NCBI GenBank assembly: GCA_002869165.1
Contig: PKTK01000013.1
Location: forward strand, 50,124 to 114,123
Direction: 5' to 3'
Length of the DNA: 64,000 nucleotides
DNA from: Candidatus Parcubacteria bacterium
Lineage (GTDB): Bacteria > Patescibacteriota > Patescibacteriia > Patescibacteriales > UBA12075
Positions 3,574-43,848 of the stretch are shown piece by piece. Under the pieces are notes generated by a model. That model had not been told where the DNA came from, ran no database searches, and was given only the letters and a program-made list of their open reading frames with translations. Positions within the stretch are counted from its first letter, which is position 1; each line of letters begins with the position of its first letter. Both the position numbers and the translations under genes were made by a program.

Positions 3574-3610
3574 AAACCTCATTCAACTCACATAACAAGT
3601 TTAACAATAT

Positions 3611-3665
3611 AATTCTCCCCTAAGCTAGGGGAGTACCCGAATGGAGTGAGGGGGAGGGGTGTGTA
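3611..3665. repeat. Family B G+C-rich repeat, partial copy
   Basis: AATTCTCCCCTAAGCTAGGGGAGTACCCGAATGGAGTGAGGGGGAGGGGTGTG matches, in reverse complement, 2327-2364 and, directly, 12073-12115. Confidence 0.65.
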
Positions 3666-3725
3666 GCCGTGGAGGTTTCCGCCCAAGGCGGACCAGGTCG
3701 GATGACCTGGCAAGTCCATTTTTAT

Positions 3726-3844: not shown

Positions 3845-3918
3845 GGATGCATAGCTCAGTTGGCTAGAGCACCTCGTTTACACCGAGGGGGTCCGGGGTT
3901 CGAGTCCCTGTGCATCCA
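3845..3918 (+). tRNA. tRNA-Val (anticodon TAC)
   Basis: Acceptor stem GGATGCA/TGCATCC. D-arm GCTC...GAGC. The anticodon loop is TTTACAC in stem CCTCG/CGAGG. The T-arm is CGGGG-TTCGAGT-CCCTG. CCA is not encoded. Confidence 0.85.
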
Positions 3919-3929
3919 CAACTAAAAAG

Positions 3930-3955
3930 CTACACCGGAAGGTGTAGTTTTTTTG
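3930..3955 (+). terminator. Intrinsic terminator after tRNA-Val
   Basis: Stem CTACACC-GGAA-GGTGTAG followed by T7. Confidence 0.7.
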
Positions 3956-3982
3956 TTGCGGATGCATTGGGAAATCGAACCC
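3955..3982 (-). repeat. Inverted degenerate copy of the tRNA-Val 3' half
   Basis: The reverse complement, GGTTCGATTTCCCAATGCATCCGCAAC, compares with the tRNA 3' end GGTTCGAGTCCCTGTGCATCCACAAC. Confidence 0.7.
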
Positions 3983-4074
3983 CGGATTTGGATGGATCAA
4001 AAGAAGTTCAAAGTTAGTGGCTTGAAAGAAATAACATAAACTACATAATAAACGTATTCGACTGAAGTCGGTGA

Positions 4075-4095
4075 GAGTCCCTGTGCATCCACAAC
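4075..4095 (+). repeat. Direct 21-nt copy of the tRNA-Val 3' end (att-like)
   Basis: GAGTCCCTGTGCATCCACAAC is identical to 3902-3922. The identity starts inside the T-loop. Confidence 0.8.
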
Positions 4096-4099
4096 AAAA

Positions 4100-4130
4100 A
4101 GAACACTCTGAAAAAAGGGTGTTCTTTTTA
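4100..4130 (+). terminator. Intrinsic terminator-like hairpin after the tRNA-Val 3' copy
   Basis: Stem AGAACAC...GTGTTCT followed by TTTTTA. Confidence 0.55.
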
Positions 4131-4155
4131 TTCAAATCTAAGACCTTATAGACTT

Positions 4156-4320
4156 TTATCTACTCCTCAAATCCTTAATCTCCACTCTTCCTCTTCCCTT
4201 ATCTACAATCTCCATTTTTTGCTTTTCTTTCCAGTTGTACTTTTCTATGATCTCTTTGGGAATTACCAAATAGTAGCTATATTTGGATACTTTTGTTAAT
4301 TTTGATATGTTTTTTTTCAT
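4156..4320 (-). CDS. AbrB/MazE/SpoVT-type small DNA-binding protein (antitoxin-like, no adjacent toxin)
   Basis: The 54-aa product contains YYLVIPKEIIEKYNWKEKQKMEIVDKGRGRVEIKD, the swapped-hairpin pattern (x-IPKEI-x ... G-x-V/I-E-I). I used the ATG at 4320; the tracked start at 4338 is a TTG. Confidence 0.5.
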   Translation of the reverse strand: MKKNISKLTKVSKYSYYLVIPKEIIEKYNWKEKQKMEIVDKGRGRVEIKDLRSR

Positions 4321-4342
4321 GATTTTATTATAACACAAAAAT

Positions 4343-4376
4343 AGTACGTACTATAGTACGTACTATGGTACGTACC
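4343..4376. promoter_or_regulatory. Three tandem 10-bp palindromes (candidate operator) upstream of the AbrB-like gene
   Basis: AGTACGTACT is at 4343 and 4355, and GGTACGTACC at 4367, giving a 12-bp period. They overlap the expected -35 region of a minus-strand TATAAT (4331-4326). That TATAAT lies only 5 nt from the ATG, which implies a leaderless mRNA. Confidence 0.5.
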
Positions 4377-4400
4377 AAACCCTTCTAGTTCTTTAAATAT

Positions 4401-4627
4401 TTAGTGTGACATTTTTGTCATTCCCGGCCGGAGCGAAGCGAAGGGGAAGGGAATCCTAGGGGTGCTAGTAAAAATATCAATAAAGAACAAAAAGTAATTA
4501 AGAGATAAGAAATGTTTTATATTAGTATTTTTATTCCTAGCTCTTGCCCCTAGATTCCCTTCCCCTTCGCCATTTGCTCGCTTCGCTTGCAAGGCTTCGG
4601 CCGGGAATGACAAAAATGTCACACTAA
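4401..4627. mobile_element. MITE-like palindromic element (family A): roughly 65-80-bp inverted arms around an AT-rich core
   Basis: The left arm is TTAGTGTGACATTTTTGTCATTCCCGGCCGGAGCGAAGCGAAGGGGAAGGGAATCCTAGGGG. The right arm is its imperfect reverse complement, ending GGCCGGGAATGACAAAAATGTCACACTAA. It has no coding capacity. Confidence 0.65.
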
Positions 4628-4729
4628 ATGTTACAGAGCCGCCCTTCCTTGCAATATTAAAGCACATATAATATACTAACTTTAATTAAATTTTATACAA
4701 ATAGTTCATTGAAAAAAAGGAGAAAAGTT

Positions 4730-5200
4730 ATGGCTGGAAGTGCTGTAGTAGGATTTCATATGGACGACCTGAATAAACCTCGTTATTGTCGACTCTGTGA
4801 CAAAAACCATTCACCAGAGGAACATCCAGAGGTTCCGCCTAGACTGAAAATGCAAATTGAGTTTGAGGAATACGAAGAAATTCTGAAAAAAATTCCCCTG
4901 ACAATTACCTGCCGGAAACAAATCAAAAAAAATCTAGCAGAACTCAGAAAAACCAAAAACATTACAGAAGAAAAAATTACTATTACAACTAAAAGATTCC
5001 TTGAATTAAGTCAAGCTTTTCACAAAGAAAACAATAGTGTTTTTCAATACTACCATAACGAAATGGCATGTTCTGTGGTATCCAATGCTTATAGCAGGAT
5101 TATCTCAAAAATTATCATTAACTGTCTTGAAAATACACCGGTAACTGAAGGGCAGTCTAGGGTTTTACTAGAAATTATCAATTGGCTAAAAAAATTATAA
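4730..5200 (+). CDS. Hypothetical protein
   Basis: An AGGAG Shine-Dalgarno sequence lies 8 nt before the ATG at 4730, and a strong terminator follows. I recognised no family. The N-terminus contains CRLCDKNH. Confidence 0.5.
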   Translation: MAGSAVVGFHMDDLNKPRYCRLCDKNHSPEEHPEVPPRLKMQIEFEEYEEILKKIPLTITCRKQIKKNLAELRKTKNITEEKITITTKRFLELSQAFHKENNSVFQYYHNEMACSVVSNAYSRIISKIIINCLENTPVTEGQSRVLLEIINWLKKL

Positions 5201-5214
5201 CAATCCCCAAAAAA

Positions 5215-5240
5215 CCGTAAGCAAAAAACTTACGGTTTTA
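5215..5240 (+). terminator. Intrinsic terminator
   Basis: CCGTAAG-CAAAAAA-CTTACGG followed by a T-run. Confidence 0.75.
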
Positions 5241-5316
5241 TATTTAAAATTAGCAAAATCGACCTCTCTTCCCTTTTTTAAAAAAATAATATATAATACA
5301 AGCAACAAACAAAATA

Positions 5317-5417
5317 TAAAACCTGGTAGATATGTGGATGTCACTCTTCATTTTATGCCGATGCTATCCAAAATCCCTCTCTTTCTCTCTCCGACAGATA
5401 CTGTTTACCAGGTTTTA
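5317..5417. repeat. Perfect 12-bp inverted repeat enclosing 77 nt
   Basis: TAAAACCTGGTA (5317-5328) pairs with TACCAGGTTTTA (5406-5417). The interior holds a CT-rich tract and no ORF. Confidence 0.5.
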
Positions 5418-5459
5418 TTTTCAATTTAAAAACCAGGAAAAAATTCATGGTTTCTTTTT

Positions 5460-5933
5460 TTAGGCATATCTTTTCTGTTTTTTTCTTCTGTATAGATGTG
5501 CTAAAGATAATACAATTGCCATTGCTACGACCCATTGAAATAAAGTCAGAAGAAAAAATGGTTTTTCTCTGATTGCTTGTTTGATGAGAAGCTCAATTAC
5601 TATAGCTGAGATTGGAGAAAAAGAAATAACTAGTAATATTCTATCTTCAAAGCAGTAGCCAAACCCAGACTGAAGCAAGGGCGAAGCGGAAATTGTGATC
5701 ATCAAAAATAAGAAAAGAAAAGAAAATATTCCTGAATAATTCTCCAAAGTTATTGGAAAAATAATACCAAACATTAAAGTAACAAGCATTGACATAGCAA
5801 CAAAAGAAATAACAAAAAGCGCTTCCATGCCACTATATTCTGGTCCATGATCCTCAAAGTTTTTGGCTGATATAAACAAAAATATCGCACAGATTGCTAA
5901 CAAAACAATTACACTCGAAATGTTTAAAATCAT
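5460..5933 (-). CDS. Hypothetical polytopic membrane protein
   Basis: About 5 predicted TM helices and a basic C-terminal tail (RRKKQKRYA). It overlaps the upstream gene by 4 nt. Confidence 0.5.
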   Translation of the reverse strand: MILNISSVIVLLAICAIFLFISAKNFEDHGPEYSGMEALFVISFVAMSMLVTLMFGIIFPITLENYSGIFSFLFLFLMITISASPLLQSGFGYCFEDRILLVISFSPISAIVIELLIKQAIREKPFFLLTLFQWVVAMAIVLSLAHLYRRKKQKRYA

Positions 5934-6406
5934 TTCTTCACCCTTTTCCTTTTATTTTTACCAAAATAAATACTCATCTCAAAAGTAATAATAGGTAAAA
6001 ACACGACAAAAAACCAAATAGTTAGAAGTCTTTGAAAATCTGGTGCTAAAGAAAAATAAGAACATCGATAAAACTCAAATAAAGTAAGTAAAAACAATGA
6101 AACAAATCCTGCTTGCGGAAACCTAAGACGAAAGTTAGTTCTTTCCTCGTTTGGGAAAAACAGAATCAACACAAACAAAAGAAAACAAAAAACTATTAAC
6201 GTGTAAGAATACATCTCTTCTGAAAGTATTGGTATTTTTGTGGAAACAAAAAAAGTGCCCACGAATACGAATATAGATATTCCAATTGCCCTAAGCGCTT
6301 CTGAATTTCTAAAATCTAAATCTTTTGCTTGCATTCTTTTTTTTATTATTTCTGAAAAAACACCTAGTAAAACCGCAATAATTGCAATATTTAATAATGA
6401 TTTCAT
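5930..6406 (-). CDS. Hypothetical polytopic membrane protein, similar in size and layout to its neighbour
   Basis: About 5 TM helices and a basic tail (KNKRKRVKK). It is translationally coupled to 5460-5933. Confidence 0.5.
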   Translation of the reverse strand: MKSLLNIAIIAVLLGVFSEIIKKRMQAKDLDFRNSEALRAIGISIFVFVGTFFVSTKIPILSEEMYSYTLIVFCFLLFVLILFFPNEERTNFRLRFPQAGFVSLFLLTLFEFYRCSYFSLAPDFQRLLTIWFFVVFLPIITFEMSIYFGKNKRKRVKK

Positions 6407-6540
6407 GTCTTCCTCCTTTTTTTAATGAACGTGCTTACAGAATATCTAATATTTTAGCTAATGTCAAACAATTATTGACAAATAGCGATTCACAAACTAA
6501 ACTATAATAAATACGTTCTTTTTAAAAAAAGGAGATAGAA

Positions 6541-6738
6541 ATGTTATATAATTTTGCAATAGTTATTATAATTATTGGCATATCAAGCTATATTTACAAC
6601 TTAAAAAATAAGCATTATTACGATGAGGAAAATTGCAGTACCTTCAGGTTTGCTTCAGTGATAATTACTGAAATTGCATGGAAGCTTTGTTTGCTTGGTC
6701 TTTTTGTTTGTTTAATCTTTGCTAGTTTTTATAGGTGA
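6541..6738 (+). CDS. Small two-TM membrane protein
   Basis: A GGAG Shine-Dalgarno sequence precedes the start. The 65-aa product has two hydrophobic helices. Confidence 0.4.
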   Translation: MLYNFAIVIIIIGISSYIYNLKNKHYYDEENCSTFRFASVIITEIAWKLCLLGLFVCLIFASFYR

Positions 6739-6741
6739 GAC

Positions 6742-7134
6742 ATGACTAGAAATATCAATAATTCAACAATTGTAAATTGTTTTGAAGCAGCTAGAAGCTT
6801 GCGTGAATACTTGGTTTATGAGGAATATAATGTTTTCTCATTCCAAGCAGAAACCCAACACAAAAAGCACGAGCCTTTTATAGTAATAAATCTACCGTTT
6901 ATGTGTATATTGGATAACTTGCCGGTAAACTGGGATGGTTTTCATGTAAAATATATATTTTGTGAAGACCCTGAACATCAAATCAACGAATATACGATTA
7001 TTACTTCTACCAAAAAAAATCAAGCTGACAAACTACATCTTAATTTGGAGGATTTTGAAAAAGTTAAAACAATTCAAGAAAAATCTGTCAAAATACTATC
7101 AAGTATAGAAAAAAGTTACCGATTTATAAACTAA
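6742..7134 (+). CDS. Hypothetical protein
   Basis: It is coupled to 6541-6738 by a 3-nt gap and a terminator follows. I recognised no motif. Confidence 0.45.
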   Translation: MTRNINNSTIVNCFEAARSLREYLVYEEYNVFSFQAETQHKKHEPFIVINLPFMCILDNLPVNWDGFHVKYIFCEDPEHQINEYTIITSTKKNQADKLHLNLEDFEKVKTIQEKSVKILSSIEKSYRFIN

Positions 7135-7160
7135 AAACCCGAGAAGCATCGGGTTTTTTA
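7135..7160 (+). terminator. Intrinsic terminator
   Basis: AACCCGA-GAAGCA-TCGGGTT followed by T6. Confidence 0.75.
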
Positions 7161-7202
7161 ATTTGACTGGATTTTTTTCTGATTTTTAGCTAATCTATAA
7201 CT

Positions 7203-9092: not shown

Positions 9093-9400
9093 TTAAGTCT
9101 ACACTAATGTAGACTTAAGTCTAAATCTTCAACAAACATATCCCCATTTTTTATGCTTTATCCACATATTAGTGTTGATAAGTCCACAATATTGTGGACT
9201 TAAATCTATTACTTATTTTAAACTGTTTAATTTTCCTCAATTTTCTTTCTATTTTAAGTCTACGCTAGCGTGGACTTAAATTAACTATTTTCTAAACAAC
9301 ATCCACGTTATATCATTAATACATTAATAAAAGGAATTGAAAGATAAAAAAACCATTATAAAATATACCCCAACTTAAGTCTATAATAGCGTGGACTTAA
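9093..9400. repeat. Cluster of four 26-bp palindromes, consensus TTAAGTCYAC-N6-GTRGACTTAA
   Basis: Copies lie at 9093-9118 (perfect), 9178-9203, 9254-9279 and 9375-9400. A fifth copy is at 36543-36568. The spacing is irregular (85, 76 and 121 bp). Confidence 0.8.
9158..9166 (+). promoter_or_regulatory. Perfect DnaA-box consensus TTATCCACA
   Basis: This is an exact 9-mer. Nearby degenerate boxes include TTATACACA (9081-9089) and AGTCCACA/TGTGGACT inside palindrome 2. Function is unproven. Confidence 0.35.
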
Positions 9401-9413
9401 ATTTTGACTTTCT

Positions 9414-9439
9414 AGATTCCTGCTTCCATAGGAATGACA
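9414..9439. repeat. Family A short hairpin unit
   Basis: AGATTCCTGCTTCCATAGGAATGACA. Confidence 0.55.
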
Positions 9440-9484
9440 AAAAAAGGAGTAAGGAATAACAGAGGTAGAAGTATTGTTTTGTGA

Positions 9485-9552
9485 AGGCGGCCACTTGCAG
9501 TGACCTACTCTACCTCACGTTCAAGAGATTCCTCGTTTCACTCGGAATGACA
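9485..9552. repeat. Family A long-form unit
   Basis: GGCGGCCACTTGCAGTGACCTACTCTACCTCACGTTCAAGAGATTCCTCGTTTCACTCGGAATGACA is collinear with 52214-52281. Confidence 0.7.
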
Positions 9553-9617
9553 AAAAAATAAGGTCTGGACCGCCCAGTCATCTGACTGGGCAAGGATTCT
9601 TACATTATTAAGTGATA

Positions 9618-9666
9618 TTTGAGGTCTGGACCGGATTCGAAGAGGCGGAAGCCTCACACCCTCAAG
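9618..9666 (-). repeat. Direct copy of the tRNA-Cys 3' end, fused to a 19-nt arm shared with the tRNA-Lys locus
   Basis: Positions 9618-9641 are identical to 9791-9814 (tRNA-Cys T-loop to 3' end plus flank). Positions 9633-9660 are the reverse complement of GGTGTGAGGCTTCCGCCTCTTCGAATCC, also found at 37532-37559 and 37710-37737. A shorter 12-nt copy is at 9561-9572. Confidence 0.8.
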
Positions 9667-9738
9667 AATTTTAATATGATCTTAAAAAATACTGTTTTAA
9701 CATTGGCATCATTTTTTTATCTATTTTTACATCTCAGG

Positions 9739-9762
9739 CACCGGTTCGAACCGATCCAGACT
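9739..9762 (+). repeat. Inverted degenerate copy of the tRNA-Cys 3' half
   Basis: CACCGGTTCGAACCGATCCAGACT compares with the tRNA sense sequence CACCGGTTCGAATCCGGTCCAGACC. Confidence 0.65.
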
Positions 9763-9786
9763 AAAAAAAGAACCCCATCTGGGGTT
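9763..9786 (-). terminator. Intrinsic terminator after tRNA-Cys
   Basis: The minus-strand sense reads AACCCC-AGAT-GGGGTT followed by CTTTTTTT. Confidence 0.7.
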
Positions 9787-9794
9787 ATTTTTTG

Positions 9795-9866
9795 AGGTCT
9801 GGACCGGATTCGAACCGGTGAATAACGGTTTTGCAAACCGTGGCCTTACCACTTGGCGACCAGACC
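9795..9866 (-). tRNA. tRNA-Cys (anticodon GCA)
   Basis: The reverse complement reads GGTCTGG..ACGGT-TTGCAAA-ACCGT..CCGGTTCGAATCCGG..CCAGACC-T. The cloverleaf is consistent. CCA is not encoded. Confidence 0.85.
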
Positions 9867-10041: not shown

Positions 10042-10113
10042 TGTCATTCCTGTGAGGGTAGAGATCTCATAGCCTTCTTATTTTACGAGATTCCTGCCTC
10101 CACAGAAATGACA
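10042..10113. repeat. Family A inverted-arm element
   Basis: TGTCATTCCTGTGAGGGTAGAGATCTC ... GAGATTCCTGCCTCCACAGAAATGACA. Confidence 0.6.
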
Positions 10114-10151
10114 CGAGAATGGATAAAAATTATATTTTTAAGCTTATAATT

Positions 10152-12062: not shown

Positions 12063-12072
12063 ATTATTTTAT

Positions 12073-12172
12073 AATTCTCCCTTTTTTAAGGGGAGTACCA
12101 CGAAGTAGGGAGGGGTTTAGTATATAAAACTCCCCGGCCTTCGGCCACCCCTCTTCAAGAAGAGGGGAATTA
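12073..12172. repeat. Family B composite G+C-rich repeat (inverted relative to 2263-2364) inside the rpsA leader
   Basis: AATTCTCCC..GGGGAGTACCACGAAGTAGGGAGGGG ... CTCCCCGGCCTTCGGCCACCCCTCTTCAAGAAGAGGGGAATTA. Confidence 0.7.
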
Positions 12173-34311: not shown

Positions 34312-35685
34312 TTAGAGTATTGTTGCTCCAAGTTCAGCAAGTTCGGATCTTTCACCCTTTTTAAGCTCAATATGAGCATAAAGCCTTTGGTCTTTCATTT
34401 TATCAATCAAGACACTTAGGCCATTGGAATTAATTCCCAAATATGGATGATCAATTTGACAAATGTCTCCTGTAAAAATAATCTTGGTTCCTTCACCTGC
34501 TCTTGTGACAATTGTTTTAACTTCATGAGGTGTCAGATTTTGCGCTTCATCAACTATCATATACATCTTCACAAGAGACCGGCCTCTAATATAAGCCAGT
34601 GGTTCAATGATTAACTTTTCCTCATCCAACATCTTTTGAAGTCTCTGAAACATTTCGGACTTCTCAGGAAATTGACTCCTTATCACAGCCAGATTGTAAT
34701 ACAAAGGCTGCATATAAGGCTTAATCTTGCTGTTTATATCTCCAGGAAGAAATCCAATGTCTTTGTTTGACAAAGGAACAATTGGACGTGCTAAAACTAT
34801 CTGACGATAGGAGCTCCTAGCTTCAAGCGCCGCTGCCAAGGCCATTAATGTTTTACCTGTGCCGGCTTTCCCACTAATAGTGACCAGCTTAACCTCGGGA
34901 TTTAATAAAGCGTGGACAGCAAATGATTGTTCGGCGTTTTTTGGAATAATCCCATATGCCTGTCTTTTAGAAACATGACGAAAAAAATGTCCTTCCCGCT
35001 CACCATCAGATTTAACAAAAGTTGCCAATGCAGATTTCTTGCCATTTTTCAATACAATAAACTCATTACAAGAAAACGAATTGGATTTTAGATTAAAATC
35101 ATCTACAGGAACACACTTACCTTCTTCATACAGACTATCAATTGCTTGAGAATTTACCCCTTCCTCCAGTCGACTTCCCGAATACAAATGCTCTACATCA
35201 ACATTGTCATTCGAATAATCTTCAGCATTTATCCCAAGCATGCAAGCTTTCATCCTGAGATTCACGTCTTTTGAAACCAAAACAACTTCCTCGTATTCTT
35301 TCTCTTTTGGATCAGCAGAAAAGCAATAAACAAAATTTAATATTTCGTTATCGTCTTTTTTCTTTCTAGGGAATGCCTTACTTAGATCATTATGGTATTC
35401 ATACTTATTGGGTTTGAGACGAATACAACCTCTGCCCTTACCAAGACTTACTCCTCCATTAAACATTGCCTTATCGTCAAAACTAGCAATGCGTCTGGTG
35501 AATGCTCTGGCATTATAGTTGTTTGTTACATTTCCTTTCTTAAAATCATCAAGTTCCTCCAAAACATGAGAACAAATAATAATATCATGCTCTTGAAAAT
35601 GTTCAGTACAAGAACTATCATGAAGGATTACATTTGTGTCAAGGATGAAAACCTTTTTCTTGCTACCACCTTGTTTCTTGGGCAT
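34312..35685 (-). CDS. PIN-domain plus PhoH-like ATPase (PhoH2/YlaK type)
   Basis: The PIN domain is VFILDTNVILHD. The PhoH Walker A is ISGKAGTGKTLMALAAA. Also present are VDEAQN and IIFTGDICQID. Confidence 0.85.
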   Translation of the reverse strand: MPKKQGGSKKKVFILDTNVILHDSSCTEHFQEHDIIICSHVLEELDDFKKGNVTNNYNARAFTRRIASFDDKAMFNGGVSLGKGRGCIRLKPNKYEYHNDLSKAFPRKKKDDNEILNFVYCFSADPKEKEYEEVVLVSKDVNLRMKACMLGINAEDYSNDNVDVEHLYSGSRLEEGVNSQAIDSLYEEGKCVPVDDFNLKSNSFSCNEFIVLKNGKKSALATFVKSDGEREGHFFRHVSKRQAYGIIPKNAEQSFAVHALLNPEVKLVTISGKAGTGKTLMALAAALEARSSYRQIVLARPIVPLSNKDIGFLPGDINSKIKPYMQPLYYNLAVIRSQFPEKSEMFQRLQKMLDEEKLIIEPLAYIRGRSLVKMYMIVDEAQNLTPHEVKTIVTRAGEGTKIIFTGDICQIDHPYLGINSNGLSVLIDKMKDQRLYAHIELKKGERSELAELGATIL

Positions 35686-36542: not shown

Positions 36543-36568
36543 TTAAATCCACAATACTGTAGACTTAA
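36543..36568. repeat. Fifth copy of the 26-bp palindrome TTAARTCYAC-N6-GTRGACTTAA
   Basis: TTAAATCCAC-AATACT-GTAGACTTAA. It shares the extended flank TAATAGATTTAAGTC with copy 2 (9178-9203). Confidence 0.75.
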
Positions 36569-37318: not shown

Positions 37319-37391
37319 GCGCCCATAGCTCAGTTGGTAGAGCAGTTGCCTCTTAAGCAAATGGTCGCAGGTTCGAATCCTGCTGGGCGCA
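37319..37391 (+). tRNA. tRNA-Lys (anticodon CTT)
   Basis: GCGCCCA..GCTC-AGTTGGTA-GAGC-A-GTTGC-CTCTTAA-GCAAA-TGGTC-GCAGG-TTCGAAT-CCTGC-TGGGCGC-A. Confidence 0.85.
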
Positions 37392-37785
37392 CAAAATAAA
37401 GCGCCGCCTGAATAGGGCGGTGTTTTATTTTGTGTGACTAGCAGATGAGAACCTGCTCTGAGGTGCAGGGGAAGAATAAAAGACAAGCTATTTGCAAAAA
37501 TATTATCAAAAACTAAACATGTTATTTTGATGGTGTGAGGCTTCCGCCTCTTCGAATCCTGCTGGGCGCACAAAATAAAAGACGTCTCGAAGAGGCGTTT
37601 TTTGTTTTGTGTGACTAGCAGATGAGAACCTGCTCTGAGGTACAGGGGAAGAATAAAAGACAAGTTATTTGCAAAAATATTATCAAAAAACTAAACATGT
37701 TATTTTGATGGTGTGAGGCTTCCGCCTCTTCGAATCCTGCTGGGCGCACAAAATAAAAGACGTCTCGAAGAGGCGTTTTTTGTAT
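37372..37785 (+). repeat. Tandem array of about 179-bp units, each beginning with the tRNA-Lys T-loop-to-3'-end segment (att-like)
   Basis: TTCGAATCCTGCTGGGCGCACAAAATAAA occurs at 37372, 37551 and 37729. The two intervening units are near-identical and end in GGTGTGAGGCTTCCGCCTC. Confidence 0.85.
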
Positions 37786-37799
37786 TTAAAAAAATTTTG

Positions 37800-37838
37800 C
37801 AAAAAAAAAGAAGGGCCGTACATTTTTGTACGACCCTT
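37800..37838 (-). terminator. Strong intrinsic terminator (minus strand)
   Basis: The minus-strand sense reads AGGGTCGTACA-AAAA-TGTACGGCCCT followed by TCTTTTTTTTT. Confidence 0.8.
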
Positions 37839-38408
37839 GCACCAGTTATGTTTTATGTTAGAGTCAGAGCATTTTACCTCCATTTTTCTGGGCAGATTCC
37901 AGGCGCTTTTCGTTTGGCCTGGATTGGATTTATGACATTTTTCTATGACCGCTGCAATGACCTCGTCTTATCGCGGCTCCCTGCTCCAATACCTCTATGG
38001 GTATGGGGGGGAGCAAGCGCATCATTTTTGACGTTCCAGTTCATCGCAGTACTTCCGAAATGGTGCCGAATTTACTTATCGACCGGTGACTTGAGATTTT
38101 CAAAGTTTTTAGATGGTCAGTCGCATCTGTTCTCCTCTTTCGCCGGAAGAATTGTGCCAGAGCAATTCGTTGCTCCCGAGCACAGGAATGAAAGATTACC
38201 GGGACTATCCAAGGTGCTGTATGGAGCAGTTCCATGACAGCGGGCTTAATCCAGTTCTTCTTCAGGTATTGTCTGCTTAAATCTTTACGGCGGGTCTTTG
38301 TTTGGCACGATTGCCTCTTTGTTGAGGTTAAGGTTTTTTGCGGTTTCTTTAAATGTACTTACATCTTTTTCTTATCGCGGCCCTCTTGGCCTGCATCGAT
38401 GCATAATT
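37803..38408 (-). ncRNA. Candidate large (about 600 nt) structured non-coding RNA of unknown class
   Basis: It is bounded by a canonical promoter and terminator. Two hand-counted 60-nt samples gave 45-52% G+C, against about 22% in a flanking sample. All frames are broken and no Shine-Dalgarno-led ORF exists. There are several 5-9-bp local hairpins. The class is not identifiable by eye. Confidence 0.45.
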
Positions 38409-42141: not shown

Positions 42142-43800
42142 ATGTCTAGTGATATCCAAATAGCTCAGAGAGCTAAAATGCAAAAAATAAAGGAGATAGC
42201 TAAAAAAATTGGCATTAATGAAGATGAATTAGAGCTTTTTGGTGATTATAAGGCAAAATTGTCTGATAAGCTCTGGAATAGAGTTAAAGACAAACCAGAT
42301 GGGAAACTAGTACTAGTAACAGCTATTAATCCAACTCCAGCTGGAGAAGGAAAATCAACCACTATGGTAGGGCTCGGTCAAGCCATGTGGAAAATAGGTC
42401 AAAAATCAATTGTGGCAATTCGTGAACCAAGCATGGGTCCAGTTTTTGGTATCAAAGGTGGTGCTGCTGGGGGTGGACATGCACAAGTTGTTCCTATGGA
42501 AGATATCAACCTTCACTTTACAGGTGACATGCATGCCATAAGCTCTGCTAACAATCTTCTCTCAGCTATGATTGATAACCATATTCAACAAGGAAATGAA
42601 CTAGGAATTGATACTCGACAAATTACCTGGAAACGTTGCGTTGATTTGAATGACAGAAGCTTGCGTAATGTTGTAGTGGGTCTTGGTGGCAAAATGCAAG
42701 GAGTGCCAAGAGAAGATGGTTTTAATATTACTGTTGCTTCAGAAATCATGGCTATTCTTTGTTTGGCTAATGATTTGGATGATTTAAAAAATCGACTAGC
42801 AAATATTATTGTCGGCTATAATCATGACGGAGAAAAAATTACTGCCAAGGACCTACGCGCTGAAGGTTCTATGGCTGTGATCCTGAAAGATGCTATCAAG
42901 CCCAATCTAGTTCAAACTTTAGAAAATACTCCAGCCATCATGCATGGTGGGCCTTTTGCTAATATTGCTCACGGTTGTAATTCTGTCCAAGCCACACGTC
43001 TAGCGCTCAAATTGTCTGATATTGTCTTAACCGAAGCTGGTTTTGGAGCTGATCTTGGGGCGGAAAAATTCCTAAACATCAAATGCAATCTTGCCAAGCT
43101 AAAACCTAATGCTATAGTTTTGGTAGCCACACTTAGAGCACTTGCTTATAATGGCAAAAACAATGAAGACAAAACCAGACTTGAGTCTATAAAAAAAGGG
43201 ATAGTAAATCTAGAAAGGCATATTGAAAATTTACAAAAATTTGGTGTACCTGTAGTAGTTACTCTAAACGCTTTTACCGAAGACGAATCAGAAGAAATCG
43301 AATTTGTAAAAACTTTTTGCGAAAAACTCGGTGCTGACTTTGAAATATCCGAAGTTTGGGAAAAAGGTGGTGAGGGCGGGGTCAAGCTAGCAAAAAAACT
43401 AGTTACTACGCTTGAAAATAAAACATCAAATTATGCGCCACTTTATGACATTAACTTAAGTATTCAAAATAAAATTGAAATAATTGCAAAAGAAATATAC
43501 CGAGCAGAAAAAGTAAACTTCTCTCAAAAAGCACTTAAAAACATTGAACAAATCAAAAAACTAGAAAAAGACAAGTTACCGATATGTATGGCCAAAACCC
43601 AATATTCTTTTTCTGACGACCCCAAGAAACTAGGTGCTCCTAAAAACTTTGAAATCACCATCAGAGAACTTAGATTATCGGCTGGGGCTGGATTTATTGT
43701 AGCTCTAGCTGGTGATATTATGACCATGCCCGGGCTACCAAAAAAACCAGCCGCTGAAGAAATTGGTATTAACAATGAAATAATTGAAGGATTATTTTAA
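42142..43800 (+). CDS. fhs: Formate--tetrahydrofolate ligase
   Basis: Contains [34 protein letters not shown], and the C-terminal [14 protein letters not shown]. Confidence 0.95.
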
Positions 43801-43813
43801 TTTATTATTTCAT

Positions 43814-43838
43814 CATCCCTGCCTCAACAGGAATGACA
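43814..43838. repeat. Family A short hairpin unit
   Basis: CATCCCTGCCTCAACAGGAATGACA, located between fhs and folD. Confidence 0.5.
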
Positions 43839-43848
43839 AAAAATAATC

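Follow-up and report, generated by a model that had tools for sequence, protein, structure and literature searches.

The DNA analyzed here is a 64-kb stretch (hereafter, the window) of a Candidatus Parcubacteria genome (candidate phyla radiation, CPR; ~33% G+C) in which three tRNA genes are directly followed by small non-coding units built on one plan. These units behave like a very small mobile element; they are neither chance matches nor a simple scar. They measure 173 to 179 bp and lie after tRNA-Val, tRNA-Cys, and tRNA-Lys in the window and after tRNA-Ala just past its right end. We interpret them as miniature, non-coding, non-autonomous integrative cassettes of ~170 to 185 bp that recombine at a repeat of the tRNA 3′ end and are acted on in trans, and we put the probability of this reading at roughly 45%. 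The analysis covered ~90 kb of the source genome and 5- to 20-kb pieces of relatives, cited below by locus labels (L numbers); scans of large collections (genomes, metagenomes, and viruses) used exact patterns only.

tRNA genes were called with ARAGORN and Rfam, yielding seven in the window. tRNA-Val, tRNA-Cys, and tRNA-Lys are each the last or sole gene of their own cluster, and a unit is present at four of the five cluster-terminal tRNA loci sampled in the source genome. The tRNA genes at these loci are intact (64 to 75 bits). Every unit runs in the same order. It opens with the tRNA sequence between the T-loop and the 3′ end, followed by a few A-rich bases and then a G+C hairpin with its T-run; next are an inverted degenerate copy and an AT-rich spacer of ~90 nt, after which a 5-bp hairpin leads into an exact direct repeat and, last, a second terminator-like hairpin. 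The direct repeat spans the region from the T-loop to a few bases beyond the tRNA 3′ end, and the inverted copy covers the T-arm and the 3′ strand of the acceptor stem, reaching through the 5′ strand of the T-stem. No open reading frame (ORF) was found in the 170- to 185-bp units. All parts that an initial annotation of this DNA had described at Val, Cys, and Lys are present, 1 to 4 bases or less from where it had placed them. The Val locus, whose unit belongs to the second of the two families defined below (types 1 and 2), reads as follows:

3845 to 3918, plus strand: tRNA-Val(TAC), intact (ARAGORN and Rfam)
3902 to 3922, plus strand: left direct repeat, comprising the last 17 nt of the tRNA and 4 nt of trailer (exact match)
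3923 to 3955, plus strand: unit terminator, consisting of an A-tract, a hairpin at 3930 to 3947, and a T-run (sequence and terminator scan)
3956 to 3986, plus strand: inverted degenerate copy of the T-arm, acceptor 3′ strand, and trailer (shuffle z score 10.8; fold z score −12.8; its own tRNA is the best match)
3987 to 4058, plus strand: type-2 AT-rich spacer, with a block at 4010 to 4030 common to the tRNA-Ala unit (alignment)
4022 to 4049, plus strand: promoter-like elements of the type-2 unit, TTGAAA (4022 to 4027), 16 nt, and CATAAT (4044 to 4049) (promoter scan)
4059 to 4070, plus strand: small hairpin CGACT-GA-AGTCG directly ahead of the repeat (sequence; RNA folding pairs four of the five possible pairs)
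4075 to 4095, plus strand: right direct repeat, an exact 21-nt copy of 3902 to 3922 that starts within the T-loop
4096 to 4129, plus strand: second terminator (fold), probably the original terminator of tRNA-Val

Exact matching bore out the 21-nt direct copy reported earlier. The inverted copy had also been recognized correctly, but its extent had not: it occupies 3956 to 3986, through the 5′ strand of the T-stem, rather than 3955 to 3982. The site at 3923 to 3955, whose A-tract, hairpin, and T-run are arranged near-symmetrically, was called by the terminator scan on just the minus strand. This terminator is doubled along with the unit in a second assembly of the same population (L008); the terminator at 4096 to 4129 stays single even there, which is why we take it to be the original one. 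At the other two loci the features are as follows:

9795 to 9866, minus strand: tRNA-Cys(GCA), intact, with the left direct repeat at 9814 to 9794
9642 to 9793, minus strand: interior of the Cys type-1 unit, with the terminator at 9786 to 9771, the inverted copy at 9762 to 9739, CTGAG at 9737 to 9733, and the AT-rich spacer
9660 to 9642, minus strand: GGTGTG and hairpin GAGGC-TTCC-GCCTC, within the unit interior
9621 to 9641, minus strand: right direct repeat, 21 nt, exact, from the first T-loop base
9561 to 9590, minus strand: hairpin CCCAGTCAGATGACTGGG, then an 11-nt third copy of the tRNA-Cys end (GGTCCAGACCT, 9571 to 9561) and a T-run (sequence and fold)
37319 to 37391, plus strand: tRNA-Lys(CTT), intact, last of an Arg-Met-Lys cluster (ARAGORN and Rfam)
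37372 to 37400, plus strand: left direct repeat of Lys, 29 nt
37401 to 37550, plus strand: interior of Lys unit 1, with terminator A at ~37401 to 37423, the inverted copy at 37432 to 37456, CTGAG at 37458 to 37462, the spacer, and the hairpin at 37537 to 37550
37551 to 37728, plus strand: Lys direct repeat 2 (37551 to 37579) and interior of unit 2, with terminator B, the inverted copy at ~37610 to 37634, the spacer, and the hairpin at 37715 to 37728
37729 to 37785, plus strand: Lys direct repeat 3 (37729 to 37757) and terminator B, probably the original 3′ flank of tRNA-Lys

The unit terminator at Cys is predicted to be bidirectional, and the 11-nt third copy of the tRNA-Cys end may be a relic of an older insertion. 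The same order of parts had been claimed for Cys and Lys, and it holds at both, with the correction that the Lys locus consists of two tandem units with periods of 179 and 178 bp (the period is 173 bp at Val and 173 bp at Cys). Outside the terminator, Lys unit 2 is 96 to 99% identical to unit 1.

Unit dimensions are close to constant. Of 13 units measured in all genomes, 11 are 169 to 186 bp long, the exceptions being a unit of ~150 bp in L016 and one of ~219 bp at tRNA-Gly of L003, a Candidatus Falkowbacteria genome (duplicated in our set as L007). In the Ala unit and all eight type-1 units, the first T-loop base is where the flanking repeats begin; in the Val unit of the window and the L003 Gly unit, they start 3 to 4 nt deeper within the T-loop. 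The duplication flanking the units is 21 to 95 nt long across loci. A simple tandem duplication was considered and rejected because single-unit loci repeat only 21 to 29 nt and the terminators on the two sides differ.

The significance of the copies was estimated by shuffling the 400 nt downstream of each tRNA 300 times with dinucleotide content preserved. The inverted copies gave z scores of 10.8 (Val), 10.4 (Cys), and 3.6 (Lys), and the direct copies gave 13.0, 13.8, and 14.4, respectively. The tRNAs that had been proposed for comparison as lacking the pattern (Pro, Leu, Arg, and Met) yielded nothing in this test, the z scores near 3 for Arg and Met being due to matches to neighboring tRNA genes. 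Inverted copies scored 32, 36, 19, and 25 against their own tRNA and at most 18 against any other. The initial annotation had held that recurrence at unrelated tRNAs argues for a mechanism and against chance, and that the observation would fall if the inverted copies were no better than shuffled controls or the pattern was absent from all other tRNA loci and relatives. Since the copies withstand both the shuffle and the own-tRNA specificity tests and the pattern recurs at a fourth tRNA and in other Parcubacteria genomes, the observation stands.

The tRNA 3′ half and the inverted copy had been said to form one long imperfect palindrome around the terminator. Folding agrees: the single strand running from the tRNA 3′ half through the terminator to the inverted copy folds into a hairpin with arms of ~40 to 45 nt and z scores of −6 to −12.8. 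In all nine aligned loci the inverted copy has its start on the 5′ base of the T-stem or no more than a few bases upstream of it, and it is best kept over the T-stem 5′ strand and the first half of the T-loop; most of the nine carry an indel of 1 to 3 nt near the 3′ side of the loop. The inverted copy thus extends leftward past the junction, so the intact gene must have served as its template or as the sequence it was selected against. A role as a primer-binding site, with the inverted copy pairing with the mature tRNA 3′ end, was rejected because the copies hold the gene trailer and not CCA.

Units at different tRNAs are related to each other. The Cys and Lys units have in common an exact 28-mer, GGTGTGAGGCTTCCGCCTCTTCGAATCC, for which no occurrence is expected by chance and which is made up of the GGTGTG motif, the hairpin GAGGC-TTCC-GCCTC, and the T-loop. 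The same 28-mer is found at tRNA-Val(CAC) of L003 and, with one difference in the T-loop, at tRNA-Arg(GCG) of the metagenome contig L006. When the junction motif of type 1 was scanned in one genome per species and in a metagenome collection, its matches lay only in the same architecture. In L003, the neighboring tRNA-Gly carries a unit of the same layout with a different interior. The interior of the unit at tRNA-Ala(TGC), which lies in source-genome sequence just beyond the right end of the window (L029), is homologous to that of the window’s Val unit; common to both are a 21-nt block, identical at 20 of 21 positions (AAGTTAGTGGCTTGAWAGAA plus the preceding base), and a second block, TAAACGTRTTCGAST. 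There are therefore at least two families. Type 1 comprises the Cys and Lys units of the window, the Val(CAC) and Arg units elsewhere, the Val(TAC) and Cys units of L015, and the Val(TAC) unit of L027, while type 2 comprises the Val(TAC) and Ala units of the source genome. Both families occupy several different tRNAs, and their direct and inverted parts always match the local tRNA. The units are homologous elements and not look-alikes.

Within type 1, conservation is limited to the block TGAGGGTGTG-hairpin-TTCGA, the spacer being not alignable; a CTGAG motif follows most type-1 inverted copies. The hairpin comes in three versions (GAGGC/GCCTC, GCCTT/AAGGC, and GCCCT/AGGGC) and is uniform within a genome: that of Cys equals that of Lys in the window, and that of Val equals that of Cys in L015. 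In the alignment, 100% of cells are paired, four of the five pairs are changed on both sides, and none of 500 shuffles was as good. This suggests that the hairpin was kept through compensatory changes, the covariation resting on about three independent variants. In type 2, a sigma-70–like promoter is predicted at the same aligned position of both units and points toward the hairpin and the repeat; in the Ala unit (L029), the promoter scan found TTGATA-17-AAAAAT preceded by TG. Scans of type-1 units returned no consistent promoter. A 15-codon ORF in the spacer of the Val unit was dismissed as a peptide gene since, judged by eye, it is not conserved in the Ala unit.

The sequences common to different loci bear on the idea that the units arose by local replication errors only, with a template switch at the terminator hairpin making the inverted copy and slippage making the direct repeat, independently at each tRNA and with no mobility. 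Such errors would fit a palindrome that is centered exactly on the terminator loop and runs outward unbroken through the A and T tracts, as well as an inverted copy that holds the T-stem 5′ strand and was hence templated from the intact gene. But non-tRNA blocks common to units at different tRNAs and in different genomes (the 28-mer and the type-2 block) contradict a purely local origin, and the identical position of the junction at most loci would be left unexplained. We consider this origin highly improbable.

Variation within the population is consistent with gain and loss of complete cassettes. Three other assemblies of the same population are 99.87 to 99.9% identical to the window over tens of kilobases, and the only structural differences among them are whole units, with breakpoints inside the direct repeats. 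The earlier proposal to look for presence/absence polymorphism is thus answered among near-identical strains, and empty sites at the same tRNAs in relatives (below) answer it at greater distance. The alleles found were:

Window: Val, one unit; Cys, one unit; Lys, units 1 and 2
ENA contigs L008 and L012: Val, two identical units; Cys, two identical units; Lys, unit 2 only
JGI contigs L009 and L013: Val, one unit; Cys, one unit; Lys, unit 1 only

Lys units 1 and 2 differ by several substitutions and have different terminators. In the Lys allele of L012, the tRNA is joined straight to the terminator of unit 2 across the 29-nt repeat. Such a joint cannot result from collapsing a two-unit allele at normal assembly k-mer sizes, so the Lys polymorphism is real. 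Exchange within the direct repeats would be expected to yield every one of these alleles. Two short-read contigs, L010 and L014, terminate inside units, as expected for repeats.

Turnover over longer times was followed in the syntenic block around the ribosomal protein L19 gene, which lies beside tRNA-Leu-Val and identifies the source as an uncultured Parcubacteria bacterium, the block being retrieved from six further genomes. Two neighboring proteins in these genomes show 47 to 67% amino acid identity, corresponding to approximately family-level divergence. In L025, gene order is conserved and both tRNA-Val and tRNA-Cys are followed by plain terminators, i.e., the sites are empty, and L019/L020 and L023/L024 are likewise empty at tRNA-Val. 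Type-1 units are present at Val and Cys in L015 and at Val in L027, and L016 carries a third form at Val, in which the start of the repeat lies in the acceptor stem. tRNA-Val(TAC) is thus occupied by type 2 in the window, by type 1 in L015 and L027, and by the third form in L016.

These loci allow the order of events to be followed. The inverted copies at Val of L015 and L027 share derived substitutions and so descend from one insertion; L019, which is closer to L015 than L027 is, has an empty site, indicating clean loss, and the presence of a unit of the other family at Val of the window indicates replacement. The direct repeats in L015 and L027 equal each genome’s own tRNA-Val, though the two tRNAs differ in the acceptor stem, and the inverted copies do not track this change. 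Homogenization of the direct repeats while the inverted copy drifts points to recurrent recombination. After the last repeat at Cys of L015 and at Val of L027, we found a terminator and a partial or decayed inverted copy, which suggests that older units are pushed outward and eroded.

The surroundings of tRNA-Val vary as well. The gene content right after it is different in every genome compared (window positions 3919 to 7200, L015, L019, L016, L025, and L027). The window has a MazE/AbrB-like gene and orphans there, L015 a peptidase and a histidine kinase, L019 radical-SAM and restriction-modification genes, and L025 nothing. The region downstream of tRNA-Val is a variable hot spot beyond the cassettes themselves. 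An AbrB-like gene and orphan genes had been noted here from the start, and rightly so; the “MITE-like element” (MITEs being miniature transposable elements with inverted repeats) listed with them is a separate foldback of 237 bp at 4396 to 4632, with 39-nt arms that are 95% complementary and two nested inverted repeats, and is unrelated to the tRNA cassettes.

The hot spot has to be considered together with another explanation, according to which the units are passive scars: two ends and attachment (att) repeats left after internal deletion of a larger tRNA-integrated island or prophage, with no activity of their own. tRNA fragments commonly flank integrated elements, the window, L015, L019, and L016 have entirely different DNA after tRNA-Val, as would an island hot spot, and the decayed partial units beyond the last repeat in L015 (Cys) and L027 (Val) would fit such a history. 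Independent deletions, however, would not yield the same size and internal order at many loci and genomes, nor do they account for identical tandem units, for unit-by-unit polymorphism in one population, or for compensatory evolution of a hairpin. No larger element with these ends was found in pattern scans of genomes, metagenomes, and viruses, and a search for att copies of a larger island revealed no further copies of the Val, Cys, and Lys tRNA ends in the 64 kb. Passive scars are, in our view, clearly unlikely. A small non-autonomous element, offered in the initial annotation as one of several readings, fits better than a scar given the constant size, the shared blocks, and the compensatory hairpin changes.

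Maintenance by selection was weighed against the same comparative data. The units could be functional small-RNA or regulatory modules in which a promoter in the spacer drives an RNA that begins with a 5′ hairpin, continues with the tRNA part between the T-loop and the 3′ end, and closes with a terminator; a second tRNA-half–like RNA may come from the opposite strand, and the products could act as mimics, decoys, or regulators of factors that read tRNA 3′ halves, with changes in copy number being a by-product of unequal exchange. The type-2 Val and Ala units do keep the −35-like block (20 of 21 positions), an aligned −10-like hexamer, and the predicted start region while the rest of the spacer diverges. 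The type-1 hairpin is kept in sequence in three genomes and, via compensatory changes, in structure in two more, the direct repeat still equals the local tRNA in L015 and L027, whose tRNAs differ, and inheritance over family-level divergence seems to link the Cys units of the window and L015 and likewise the Val units of L015 and L027. In contrast, type-1 units lack a consistent promoter, and units are missing from the same tRNAs in relatives and from tRNA-Pro of the source genome. The two families are also unrelated, having the architecture alone in common. Apart from the small hairpin and the terminator, folding of the predicted hairpin-plus-repeat RNAs gave nothing significant or tRNA-like, so that a minihelix or tRNA-like structure is unsupported. 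Gathering-threshold and permissive scans of Rfam 15 matched only tRNAs, with no credible match in the units at E values up to 10. We regard a selected RNA module as unlikely.

The T-loop junction, a 3′ end and terminator supplied by the element, the displaced repeat, stacking, clean loss, and empty sites together amount to the signature of site-specific integration at tRNA genes. In the integrative-cassette reading, a cassette would bring its own tRNA sequence from the T-loop to the 3′ end together with a terminator, so that the tRNA would be intact after insertion, and the displaced original 3′ end would be left downstream as the direct repeat with the original terminator. Recombination between the direct repeats would remove, add, or stack cassettes. 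The data show the anatomy, the family relationships, and the dynamics in the population and over evolution; movement would probably be catalyzed by a recombinase, most plausibly a site-specific enzyme whose gene lies in another part of the genome or on a helper element, and homologous exchange between repeats would also contribute. A circular or single-stranded intermediate may be involved; a circle would show up in assemblies by a junction that tandem arrays also produce. Recognition in the reaction may rely on the hairpin at the junction and on the inverted copy of the T-arm, and the promoter-like block of type-2 cassettes would transcribe the hairpin and the tRNA 3′ remnant.

Several points weigh against this interpretation. 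The units, the window ORFs tested, and the annotated flanks of related loci revealed no integrase, transposase, or reverse transcriptase (the search comprised Pfam on 20 window ORFs and precomputed annotations of all fetched flanks). In exact-pattern scans of a virus collection, neither an autonomous parent nor a phage turned up that shares the junction motif or the tRNA cores: in IMG/VR, two versions of the junction motif, three tRNA cores, and the type-2 block returned only one chance match in a phage coding region, and neither unit type matched any of 50,697 phage records by blastn. Scans of species-representative genomes and metagenome contigs for the junction motif likewise brought up small units only. 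For conventional integrase chemistry, a double-stranded circle as short as 173 bp would be a very small substrate. The doubled identical units of L008 may be an artefact of short-read assembly, the Lys alleles alone being protected by differences between units, and homologous or slipped-strand exchange between repeats of 21 to 29 nt could yield all gains and losses with no dedicated enzyme. Last, the model leaves two features unexplained: the inverted copy includes the T-stem 5′ strand, which is outside the repeat, and one family has acquired matching direct and inverted copies for five tRNAs.

These two features, together with the structure-conserved junction hairpin, leave room for a folded single-strand or templated mechanism. 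The cassettes might then form a class of their own among miniature mobile elements, targeting tRNAs in CPR bacteria: insertion might be guided by nucleic acid structure (the T-arm hairpin, the junction hairpin, and the folded palindrome) rather than by a sequence-specific att site and copy the tRNA 3′ half both ways; such elements may also express RNAs that mimic tRNA 3′ halves. A single-strand or RNA-templated intermediate could be involved, with snap-back synthesis at the terminator. We hold this variant to be rather improbable.

Integron attC sites and the attP site of phage CTX are folded single-strand recombination sites, and by analogy the long imperfect palindrome of the cassettes would fold in single-stranded DNA as they do. 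Like these sites, the cassettes have a long imperfect palindrome with small bulges, come as cassette-like units, and form tandem arrays at one chromosomal site. Unlike attC, their inter-unit repeat is at least 21 nt instead of 7, neither attC core motifs nor a nearby IntI was identified, and one arm of the palindrome is the host tRNA; no sequence in the palindrome arms is common to all cassettes. One could accordingly imagine a mobility chemistry different from that of conventional integrases, either single-strand (of HUH type or through a folded hairpin, as with attC and CTX) or RNA-templated from the junction hairpin with snap-back at the terminator. The structure-conserved hairpin next to the junction, the long imperfect palindrome with its indel of 1 to 3 nt near the T-loop in most of the nine aligned loci, and tandem stacking comparable to CTX/RS1 arrays agree with such a chemistry, and this is the sole class of model that accounts for target-matched copies in both orientations. 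It is nevertheless argued wholly by analogy: no gene for an HUH enzyme, integron integrase, or reverse transcriptase was found in any sampled flank, and known HUH transposases do not make repeats of at least 21 nt. We rate it as very unlikely.

Comparison with other small or tRNA-associated elements places the cassettes next to islands that lack their own integrase. With MITEs and REPINs (repetitive extragenic palindromic doublets forming hairpins), they share small size, a non-coding and hairpin-forming sequence, multiple copies, and presence and number that vary among strains; they differ in having locus-specific arms that match the adjacent tRNA, no short target duplication, no common terminal repeat, and an exclusive location at tRNA 3′ ends. 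Palindromic elements derived from IS200/IS605 have subterminal hairpins at both ends, a fixed target of 4 to 5 nt, and no flanking repeat; the cassettes do carry hairpins, but the left-end hairpins of the cassettes (the terminators) vary and a repeat of at least 21 nt flanks each of them. P4-type integrase islands, reportedly treated by Williams in 2002, are said to be tRNA-integrating elements of the T-loop class. Mycobacteriophage Ms6 integrates at the class II, T-loop sublocation, and small changes in its attP core retarget it to other tRNAs (PMC1762012). As in Ms6 and P4-type elements, the identity block of the cassettes extends from the T-arm to the tRNA 3′ end and the tRNA is regenerated by element-borne sequence; unlike the cassettes, those elements are autonomous, carry a tyrosine integrase beside attP, and lack an inverted copy of the tRNA half. 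Judged by what defines tRNA-integrating elements, the cassettes have the intact tRNA with a T-loop repeat and the precise presence/absence polymorphism but no integrase of their own.

The closest described parallel is the integrase-less, cis-mobilizable islands at tRNA and transfer-messenger RNA (tmRNA) genes, namely the Dehalococcoides ssrA islands and the streptococcal cis-mobilizable elements (CIMEs). The Dehalococcoides islands form tandem arrays at the tmRNA gene with 20-bp repeats, insertion in the T-loop, and a conserved motif just upstream of each repeat; many have no integration genes and were interpreted as cis-mobilizable (PMC3146451). The cassettes resemble these islands and CIMEs in the ~20-bp repeat of the 3′ end, the T-loop junction, the motif upstream of the repeat, stacking, and the existence of members without integration genes, and they retain attL and attR without recombination or transfer genes, as CIMEs by definition do. 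Whereas Dehalococcoides islands are kilobases long, carry genes, and have a recombinase in related members of the array, the cassettes are 170 to 185 bp and gene-free, and no cognate recombinase or parent was found for them; their tRNA-specific inverted copy and junction hairpin are not described for Dehalococcoides islands or CIMEs. We classify the architecture as a variation on att-flanked integrative elements without an integrase of their own. No prior description of it, CPR cassettes included, was found in Rfam or in the literature searched.

If mobile, the cassettes would be by far the smallest att-flanked integrative elements described and the first family of repeats or mobile elements characterized at tRNA genes of the CPR, whose mobile DNA is poorly known. 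They alter tRNA 3′ flanks, terminators, and possibly local transcription, create structural variation at the strain level, and break short-read assemblies at tRNA genes, two contigs ending within units. Current integrase models do not cover the kind of recognition to which the conserved hairpin and the target-matched inverted copy point.

Several other features of the window lie near the cassettes. Upstream of tRNA-Leu, at 3646 to 3715, there is a weak tRNA-Leu–like segment (z score ~3.4) that ends in GTGGAGGTT and is followed by two hairpins and CAAGTCC; in L027 (8273 to 8340) and L019 (6471 to 6560), the hairpin GGTCCGCCTTGGGCGGA and a partial copy of the tRNA-Leu 3′ end directly follow tRNA-Leu. 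These segments may be a much shorter version of the hairpin-plus-repeat architecture. Two sites, 3608 to 3653 and 12070 to 12115, have in common a TATAAT box followed by the hairpin TCTCCC...GGGGAG and by GTACC..GAGGGG. One is located upstream of tRNA-Leu-Val, the other heads a non-coding stretch of ~130 nt facing tRNA-Pro, and the pair may represent a common promoter and leader of two RNA transcripts.

Around tRNA-Cys, the palindrome TAAGTCYAC-N6-GTRGACTTA occurs four times (9094 to 9399) in a 1.3-kb non-coding stretch between a DksA-like gene and the tRNA, and once more at 36544 to 36567, upstream of the Arg-Met-Lys cluster; ~0.05 occurrences are expected by chance. Its position is kept over family-level divergence (L015, 15350 to 15480; L025, downstream of tRNA-Cys). 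Half of the palindrome resembles a DnaA box, and gene orientation converges in the region. Hairpin repeats of the form TTTTTGTCATTCC...GGAATC are found at 9415 to 9551, 10071 to 10118, and 43796 to 43843, and the foldback at 4396 to 4632 holds the same GTCATTCC motif.

Convergent with the Lys cassettes is a minus-strand region at 37840 to 38330 that has 47 to 48% G+C, no credible ORF, and a strong minus-strand terminator at 37838 to 37811. Its RNA fold z score is −3.9 and it has no Rfam match at E ≤ 0.01, making it a candidate structured RNA gene. Also on the minus strand, at 34312 to 35685, is a gene for a PIN/PhoH-like ATPase. No close Parcubacteria homologue of it was found, and since its nearest homologues outside its own population are in Desulfobulbaceae (67% identity), the gene looks horizontally acquired.

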